Positions 1 through 1,131 of a stretch of 1,131 nucleotides of DNA are shown piece after piece. Below the pieces are notes generated by a model that was not told the origin of the DNA, ran no database searches, and saw nothing but the letters and a program-made list of their open reading frames with translations. The stretch lies in assembly GCF_003334335.1 (NCBI RefSeq), contig NZ_QOWQ01000121.1; one strand, given 5' to 3'. Each line of letters begins with the position of its first letter. The stretch's first letter is position 1. This DNA comes from Escherichia coli. Its GTDB lineage: Bacteria; Pseudomonadota; Gammaproteobacteria; Enterobacterales; Enterobacteriaceae. Both the position numbers and the translations under genes were made by a program.

Positions 1-657
1 TCAGAGCAGTCACCGCGGGTGGTGCTCTGGGAAATCGACCTGACGGTACAGGGCGGTGAGCGGTATTTTTTCTGTAATGAGCTGAATGAAAAAGGGGAGC
101 CGGTCACCTGGCAGGGGCGGCAATATCAGGCGTACCCGATTGAGGGGAGTGGCTTTGAGATGAACGGAAAGGGCAGCAGTGCCCGCCCGTCGCTGACGGT
201 GTCCAATCTGTTTGGTCTTGTCACCGGAATGGCGGAGGATTTGCAGAGCCTGGTGGGGGCCACGGTGGTCCGCCGCCGGGTGTATGCCCGTTTTCTGGAT
301 GCGGTGAATTTCGTTGCGGGCAATCCGGAGGCGGACCCGGAGCAGGAGCTGAGTGACCGCTGGGTGGTGGAGCAGATGTCGCAGCTGACAGCCATGACGG
401 CCTCGTTTGTGCTGGCCACACCGACCGAGACGGACGGGGCGCTGTTTCCCGGTCGTATCATGCTGGCGAACACCTGTATGTGGACCTACCGCTCTGATGA
501 GTGTGGTTACACGGGCGGGGCTGTGGCGGATGAGTTCGATAAACCCACCACGGATATCCGTAAGGACAGATGCAGCAAGTGCATGCGCGGGTGTGAACTG
601 CGCAGGAATGTCGGCAATTTTGGCGGTTTCCTTTCCATTAATAAACTTTCGCAGTAA
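1..657 (+). CDS. L: Minor tail / tail-tip protein, lambda gpL family (5'-partial; the N-terminus lies upstream of the window)
   Basis: Frame 1 is open from position 1 to TAA at 655-657 (the track ORF 19-657 is the same frame). The translation SEQSPRVVLWEIDLTVQGGERYFFCNELNEKGEPVTWQGRQYQAYPIEGSGF...NVGNFGGFLSINKLSQ matches my recollection of lambda gpL along its whole length, including the C-terminal cysteine-rich segment and the ...GFLSINKLSQ end. By that comparison roughly a dozen N-terminal codons lie upstream of the window. The annotated start at 19 (GTG) is therefore an artefact of the window edge, not the real start. Confidence 0.92.
   Translation, partial: SEQSPRVVLWEIDLTVQGGERYFFCNELNEKGEPVTWQGRQYQAYPIEGSGFEMNGKGSSARPSLTVSNLFGLVTGMAEDLQSLVGATVVRRRVYARFLDAVNFVAGNPEADPEQELSDRWVVEQMSQLTAMTASFVLATPTETDGALFPGRIMLANTCMWTYRSDECGYTGGAVADEFDKPTTDIRKDRCSKCMRGCELRRNVGNFGGFLSINKLSQ
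475..594 (+). other. C-terminal cysteine cluster of gpL-family protein (candidate iron-sulfur ligands)
   Basis: Cys codons at 475-477, 502-504, 571-573, 580-582 and 592-594 give the spacing C-x8-C-x22-C-x2-C-x3-C in ...NTCMWTYRSDECGY...KDRCSKCMRGCELRRN. The gpL C-terminal domain has been reported to coordinate an Fe-S cluster through conserved cysteines. Confidence 0.7.
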
Positions 658-667
658 ATCCCGGTTT

Positions 668-1131
668 ATGACACAGACTGAATCAGCGATTCTGGCGCAT
701 GCCCGGCGGTGTGCGCCTGCGGAGTCGTGCGGCTTCGTGATAAGCACGCCGGAGGGGGAGCGGTATATCCCTTGTGTGAATATTTCTGCAGAGCCGGAGG
801 CGTATTTTCGTATCGCACCGGAAGACTGGCTGCGGGCAGAGATGCAGGGGGAGATTGTGGCACTGGTCCACAGTCATCCCGGTGGGCTGCCCTGGCTGAG
901 CGAGGCTGACCGGCGGCTGCAGATAAAAAGCGCACTGCCCTGGTGGCTGGTCTGCCGGGGTGACATTCACAAATTCCGCTGTGTGCCACATCTGACAGGA
1001 CGGCGCTTTGAGCACGGGGTGACGGACTGTTACACGCTGTTCCGGGATGCTTACCATCTGGCGGGAATTGATATGCCGGATTTTCATCGCGAGGATGACT
1101 GGTGGCGCAACGGCCAGAACCTGTACCTGGA
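668..1131 (+). CDS. K: Tail assembly protein, lambda gpK family (JAMM/MPN domain followed by start of NlpC/P60 domain; 3'-partial)
   Basis: ATG at 668-670 opens a frame that runs to the window end without a stop (154 codons plus 2 nt). It is absent from the ORF track only because it has no stop inside the window. The translation MTQTESAILAHARRCAPAESCGFVISTPEGERYIPCVNISAEPEAYFRIAPEDWLRAEMQGEIVALVHSHPGGLPWLSEADRR...GVTDCYTLFRDAYHLAGIDMPDFHREDDWWRNGQNLYL matches my recollection of lambda gpK with scattered substitutions. It contains an H-x-H-x7-S-x2-D JAMM motif and a D-C-Y papain-like Cys context. Position immediately downstream of L matches lambda gene order. Confidence 0.9.
   Translation, partial: MTQTESAILAHARRCAPAESCGFVISTPEGERYIPCVNISAEPEAYFRIAPEDWLRAEMQGEIVALVHSHPGGLPWLSEADRRLQIKSALPWWLVCRGDIHKFRCVPHLTGRRFEHGVTDCYTLFRDAYHLAGIDMPDFHREDDWWRNGQNLYL
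869..910 (+). other. JAMM/MPN+ metalloprotease zinc-binding motif (H-x-H-x7-S-x2-D) within K
   Basis: Codons at 869-871 (His), 875-877 (His), 899-901 (Ser) and 908-910 (Asp) give V-H-S-H-P-G-G-L-P-W-L-S-E-A-D, an exact fit to the JAMM consensus HxHx(7)Sx(2)D. Candidate upstream acidic residues are Glu at 722-724 and Glu at 752-754 or 758-760. Confidence 0.8.
1028..1030 (+). other. Candidate catalytic cysteine of an NlpC/P60 (papain-like) domain in K
   Basis: TGT at 1028-1030 encodes Cys in the context H-G-V-T-D-C-Y-T-L-F-R-D-A-Y, which resembles the Cys-containing N-terminal helix motif of NlpC/P60 peptidases. The partner His and polar residue would lie beyond the right edge of the window. 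Confidence 0.55.

Follow-up and report, generated by a model that had tools for sequence, protein, structure and literature searches.

The window, by which we mean the whole stretch of 1131 bases analysed here, carries two open reading frames on its + strand. According to the ORF listing and the translation, these account for 1121 of the 1131 bases (Table 1). Frame 1 contains no stop from base 1 until a TAA, which gives 218 codons and corresponds to the 3′ part of gene L. The second frame opens with an ATG shortly after, runs for 154 codons, and is still open at the end of the window; it corresponds to the 5′ part of gene K. A preliminary description, made from the sequence, had identified two lambda-type tail genes, tightly spaced and filling the window. 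Both parts of this description hold. In profile and structure-database searches, the similarity of the two products to lambda L and K is far above chance, and a spacer of only 10 nt separates the genes.

Table 1. Coordinates of features in the window and, where a locus is named, in the relatives compared with it
Feature	Position	Strand	Basis or comment
Gene L, 3′ part (minor tail / tail tip protein L)	1..657	+	codons 15-232 of the 232-codon gene, plus stop
L region with the four [4Fe-4S] cysteine codons	475..594	+	computed Cys positions; ligands from PMC10721106
Fe-S cysteine codons, corresponding to Cys173, Cys182, Cys205, Cys212 (full-length numbering)	475-477, 502-504, 571-573, 592-594	+	computed
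Gene L stop, TAA	655-657	+	translation
L-K spacer ATCCCGGTTT, 10 nt	658..667	+	sequence, alignments
Gene K, 5′ part (tail tip assembly protein K, JAB/MPN + NlpC/P60 'C40 family peptidase')	668..1131	+	codons 1-154 of the 247-codon gene
K JAMM metalloprotease motif	722..910	+	Glu19 = 722-724; His68-x-His70-x7-Ser78-x2-Asp81 = 869-910
K Cys121 codon, motif GVTDC	1028..1030	+	presumed NlpC/P60 nucleophile; remainder of the domain past the window end
Start of similarity, end of M	about 9980-10005 in L005 and L009		45-60 nt upstream of window base 1
Variable cargo downstream of J	about 15000-20700 in L005-L014; 20780-26600 in L001
Gene I, loci compared	2774-3445 in L003 (lambda); 11450-12031 in L005

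Gene L encodes a tail-tip protein of the lambda type

In a profile search, the L fragment matches Pfam family PF05100 (Phage_tail_L) with an E-value of 7.7e-93, over model positions 3-206 of 206. It also scores 361 bits against the NCBIfam equivalog TIGR01600, over profile positions 5-224 of 224, and so spans the family profile at full length and well above the curated cutoff of 70.75. The structure-database match to lambda gpL itself (PDB chain 8iyk_L) has an E-value of 8.8e-121, and the amino acids of the fragment are identical to residues 15-232 of WP_021565171.1. K follows L directly within the window, and M precedes L in 10 of 10 relatives with an identical L protein.

Previous work has shown that lambda gpL forms a trimer, which builds the conical tail tip together with gpJ (PMC10721106). 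Its C-terminal domain holds a [4Fe-4S] cluster, with Cys173, Cys182, Cys205 and Cys212 as ligands (PMC10721106, citing Tam et al. 2013). All four of these cysteines are found at equivalent positions in the L of the window. Because this L is 79% identical to the solved lambda protein, we infer that it would likewise be a trimeric tail-tip protein, forming a cone with gpJ and binding a [4Fe-4S] cluster through its C-terminal domain.

Gene K encodes a putative two-domain peptidase

The K fragment matches Pfam family PF14464 (Prok-JAB) over residues 3-105 with an E-value of 2.2e-16, and PHROG 30 (phrog_30, the lambda-type K proteins) with an E-value of 1.7e-99. Its sequence equals residues 1-154 of WP_115255700.1. 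Its JAB domain contains the JAMM motif E...HxHx7Sx2D, made up of Glu19 and of HSHPGGLPWLSEAD at residues 68-81. This motif was detected by a regular-expression match at residue 68, by the context of Glu19 (APAESCGFV), and by alignment to the JAB protein 2kks_A. About the first 35 residues of the NlpC/P60 part, including Cys121, lie within the window, and on this fragment Pfam makes no call for the domain. PF00877 (NLPC_P60) is recorded for K relatives of 247 aa, and the K protein that was checked in this regard, that of locus L005, is identical to ours over its first 154 residues.

In lambda, gpK is needed for tail assembly and is absent from virions by mass spectrometry (PMC10721106). A separate report likewise did not detect gpK in virions and describes its whereabouts as unknown (PMC12617516). 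It has been predicted that K processes gpI by cutting off the ubiquitin-like N-terminal domain (PMC1779556). The K of the window is predicted to be a peptidase-like assembly factor of two domains, a JAB/MPN metalloprotease followed by an NlpC/P60 cysteine peptidase, and its biochemical activity as a peptidase is a prediction from these motifs. Such a protein would serve in the building of the tip and then be missing from the finished virion, and it may act on gpI, encoded by the following gene, by processing its ubiquitin-like N-terminal domain. Cryo-EM models show gpI solely from residue 135 to residue 223, its C-terminal part. This is compatible with cleavage of gpI by K, without being proof of it.

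These considerations bear on the statement that the window holds two conserved structural genes. The conserved L/K pair stands. The word structural does not suit K, which is not strictly a structural protein, because it is an assembly factor that was not detected in virions (PMC10721106).

The spacer between L and K

The spacer contains no purine-rich Shine-Dalgarno sequence, and neither does its counterpart in lambda, ATCCC. Since the start of K lies 10 nt past the stop of L and no ribosome-binding site is recognisable, K is probably translated at a low level by coupling to L. The spacer of the window is 5 nt longer than the 5 nt found in lambda, and the 10-nt form is common to the close relatives that were aligned. 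It is possible that the extra length might change the coupling, and hence the dosage of K, although nothing inside the window points there.

No further genes or elements in the window

It had been proposed that two genes at such spacing leave no room for a moron, a defence gene or a regulatory island, and our scans of the window indeed turned up nothing credible of this kind. Scans for promoters and terminators, Rfam families, tRNAs and repeats gave nothing above chance. There are no promoter-like sites in the window, and two terminator-like hairpins, both inside L, compared with 0.7 ± 1.0 in shuffled sequences. There is no tRNA in the window, and no Rfam family comes near its threshold, the sole match, at 17 bits (E 0.92) where the gathering score is 56, being due to chance. 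The only repeat is a 12-nt direct repeat in two copies, which is not meaningful.

A long ORF of 245 aa lies on the minus strand at 10-747, where it overlaps nearly the whole of L; an equivalent ORF is present in lambda. We considered this ORF as a gene and rejected it as a codon-register artefact, a by-product of codon usage. The ORF is in codon register with L, such that antisense stops arise solely from the sense codons TTA, CTA and TCA, of which L has 0, 0 and 2, respectively. Between the window and lambda, the antisense product is 51% identical, versus 79% for L, and we therefore conclude that selection acts on the sense frame.

Divergence from lambda

Alignment of the window with NC_001416 reveals 213 substitutions in 1125 aligned bases, or 81.1% identity, together with two indels: one of 5 nt in the spacer and a 1-nt gap. 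With DNA identity of only 81%, the window is not from lambda itself, and the characterization of the source as lambda-like is confirmed. For comparison, true lambda isolates match the L-K junction stretch of lambda (NC_001416, locus L003, 2126-2330) at 99.5-100%. In ICTV practice, phage species are demarcated at about 95% nucleotide identity. With 81.1% over the window, the segment lies outside the species Lambdavirus lambda.

In other respects the two are alike. Both genes are present in lambda, with order and strand unchanged. Its L (PDB 8iyk/8iyl/8k35/8xcg/9e7m) shares with that of the window the length register and the four Fe-S cysteines, and its K shares the start just after L, the JAMM motif and the NlpC/P60 cysteine.

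The substitutions had been described as many and scattered. This is true of the window as a whole, but their distribution is uneven, with L clearly denser than K. Counted per 100 nt along the window, they number 20, 18, 21, 38, 21, 31, 8, 13, 11, 21, 7 and 4. L is thus far more diverged from lambda than K, with 76.4% versus 87.5% identity in DNA and 78.9% versus 92.9% in protein, the last figure being relative to a frame-corrected lambda K. Third codon positions hold 97 of the 155 differences in L and 46 of the 58 in K, a concentration that is the signature of purifying selection on both + strand frames.

A base missing from the lambda reference

The 1-nt gap in the alignment of the window with lambda is a defect of the reference record rather than of the window. 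Records J02459 and NC_001416 lack one G in gene K, opposite base 802 of the window and at about position 2267 in locus L003. This G is present in independently sequenced lambda (PV340536 and LC730321, the latter of 48,503 bp). In about 30 lambda derivatives, the match spans 206 bases, not 205, and match length also indicates the G in KT232076, DE3, and imm21 and imm434 hybrids.

The missing base splits K, and the reference consequently annotates a K of 199 aa starting MSPEDW. In this version the JAB domain is without its catalytic Glu, and a false gap of 148 nt is left after L. When the base is restored, lambda K becomes a protein of 247 aa that starts 5 nt after L. Tight spacing of L and K is therefore normal, and the reference annotation is the exception. 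In the literature searched, we found no published mention of the missing base.

Closest relatives and prevalence

Database searches to check the assignment to a lambdoid tail module returned only lambdoid tail genes, in 232 records of the phage collection, all of them Escherichia-type lambdoid or Stx-converting phages, and in 4034 E. coli records. The matches are annotated as 'tail tip assembly protein L / K' or as 'phage minor tail protein L / C40 family peptidase'. Matches are present in 4005 of 5426 complete E. coli genomes (~74%), at a median of 2 places per genome and a maximum of 18.

The best match in RefSeq, in strain S1-KEN-03-A (NZ_CP145698.1), is 98.8% identical. Prophage CP043747.1, with 11 mismatches (99.0% identity), is the closest of ten places that have an identical L protein, and the best match among phages is the lambdoid PhiR5_1 (PV340545.1), which was deposited as a complete phage genome and has 97.8% DNA identity. 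None of the collections searched contains a record with 100% identity. In PLSDB, we found weaker matches only (≤97.4%), all on large records labelled 'plasmid' from E. coli, Salmonella and Shigella. We also searched with an exact pattern of 44 nt that includes a base specific to the window, C at 1054. Neither the GTDB species representatives nor the JGI metagenomes contain this pattern; in IMG/VR, it occurs on one contig of 5.7 kb, which is 95.9% identical over the window.

Lambdoids such as S1-KEN-03-A, CP043747.1 and PhiR5_1 carry both WP_021565171.1 (L) and WP_115255700.1 (K), have the same 10-nt spacer, and differ from the window at 11-25 scattered nucleotides (97.8-99.0% DNA identity). 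These differences are partly clustered, at 132-249 and 784-817, which suggests short patches of recombination among co-resident lambdoid prophages. The amino acids encoded by S1-KEN-03-A are identical to those of the window. The 14 differences between them are all synonymous, which suggests that purifying selection continues. In PhiR5_1, window positions 132-249 account for 16 of the 25 differences, and several prophages share the same variant blocks.

Genomic context and the tail-tip module

The context of the window copy is taken from relatives at 98-99% identity. In S1-KEN-03-A and PhiR5_1, L and K lie inside a complete late operon of lambda order, annotated as Nu1-A-W-B-C-D-E-FI-FII-Z-U-V-G-T-H-M-L-K-I-J-lom-stf, where the first genes are those for terminase, W, portal and C/Nu3, and lom is followed by a side-fibre gene and its assembly gene. 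The order M-L-K(Prok-JAB + NLPC_P60)-I-J is constant in 10 of the 10 genomic places with an identical L protein. In all relatives examined, K is followed by gene I, which encodes a ubiquitin-like domain and TAPI-C, and then by J.

The preliminary description expected variable content downstream of K, and the ten relatives bear this out. Their loci diverge past about the last third of J, which has 1157 or 1176 residues and occurs in two C-terminal variants. Downstream of J, lom is present or absent, the side-fibre genes differ, and YadA-anchor adhesin-like proteins of 264-517 residues are encoded. A DinI-like gene was also observed in relatives, at the prophage end downstream of the tip module.

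Variation immediately upstream, which that description did not anticipate, is equally sharp. Five of the ten places have a head and tail-shaft module of the HK97 type instead of the lambda type. These HK97-type lambdoid prophages with a lambda-type tip (loci L007 and L009-L012) have an identical L protein followed by K-I-J, whereas their upstream head and tail-shaft genes are unrelated to those of lambda. When lambda-type and HK97-type loci are compared, their DNA becomes similar only within the final ~25 nt of M (GAGCAGGTGGTGAACTGATGCAGGATAT), where M and L overlap, and this stretch is conserved even in lambda. The M/L boundary resembles a junction for module exchange, where lambda-type and HK97-type tails may have swapped their tip module. 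The 1131 bases of the window itself are compatible with a backbone of either the lambda or the HK97 type.

Nature of the segment

Almost certainly, the window derives from a temperate lambdoid phage or prophage of E. coli and covers part of its late (tail) operon, with the end of L and the start of K. The segment is already known, as the tail-tip module of ordinary lambdoid E. coli prophages. In a variant of this reading, the source of the window is a prophage remnant that has become defective, in which L and K are locally intact but serve no functional phage. Many E. coli prophages are defective, the segment occurs in E. coli genomes in a median of 2 copies and a maximum of 18, and the window ends inside both genes, short of their flanks. 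On the other hand, both reading frames are open throughout the window, and they encode exactly the residues found in a prophage whose head-tail operon is complete, with synonymous differences only. A phage deposited as a complete genome is also close at hand in PhiR5_1. We thus consider a remnant unlikely. It is also conceivable that the L-K copy sits in an unusual backbone, such as a satellite-like element or one in which this tip is newly combined with a non-lambda shaft; nothing inside the window points there, and we judge this very improbable.

Two further possibilities would take the segment, or part of it, away from the tail operon of a phage. Tails of the lambda type have non-phage derivatives, and the L of the window has a homologue in F2-pyocin (25vf_7, E 1e-39), while the gene order of RcGTA is similar to that of lambda-type tail genes (PMC10721106). 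Both sets of homologues are distant, however, and the near-identical relatives examined are all E. coli prophages in which the segment adjoins a lambda-type or HK97-type capsid and portal module, so that an origin in an F-type tailocin or an element akin to a gene-transfer agent is extremely unlikely. Just as hard to credit is a second gene or regulatory element embedded in the window, such as the antisense ORF or a small RNA. The length of that ORF and its equivalent in lambda speak for a gene, but the ORF is accounted for by codon register and its product is far less conserved than L, while the want of promoter-like sites and tRNAs, and an Rfam match at chance level, argue against any other embedded element.

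As a piece of late operon from a lambdoid phage or prophage, the window is of little importance in itself. It is a textbook piece of the tail tip, and its main use lies in the negative result that it contains neither cargo nor a defence gene nor a regulatory element. Two observations made in the course of the comparison may be useful to annotators, namely, that the M/L boundary appears to be a point of exchange for the tip module, and that K is misrepresented in the lambda reference through one missing base. Annotations also disagree on where gene I starts: the gene is given as 223 aa with a 103-nt overlap with K in NC_001416, and elsewhere as 210 aa, or as 193 aa with a 4-nt overlap.
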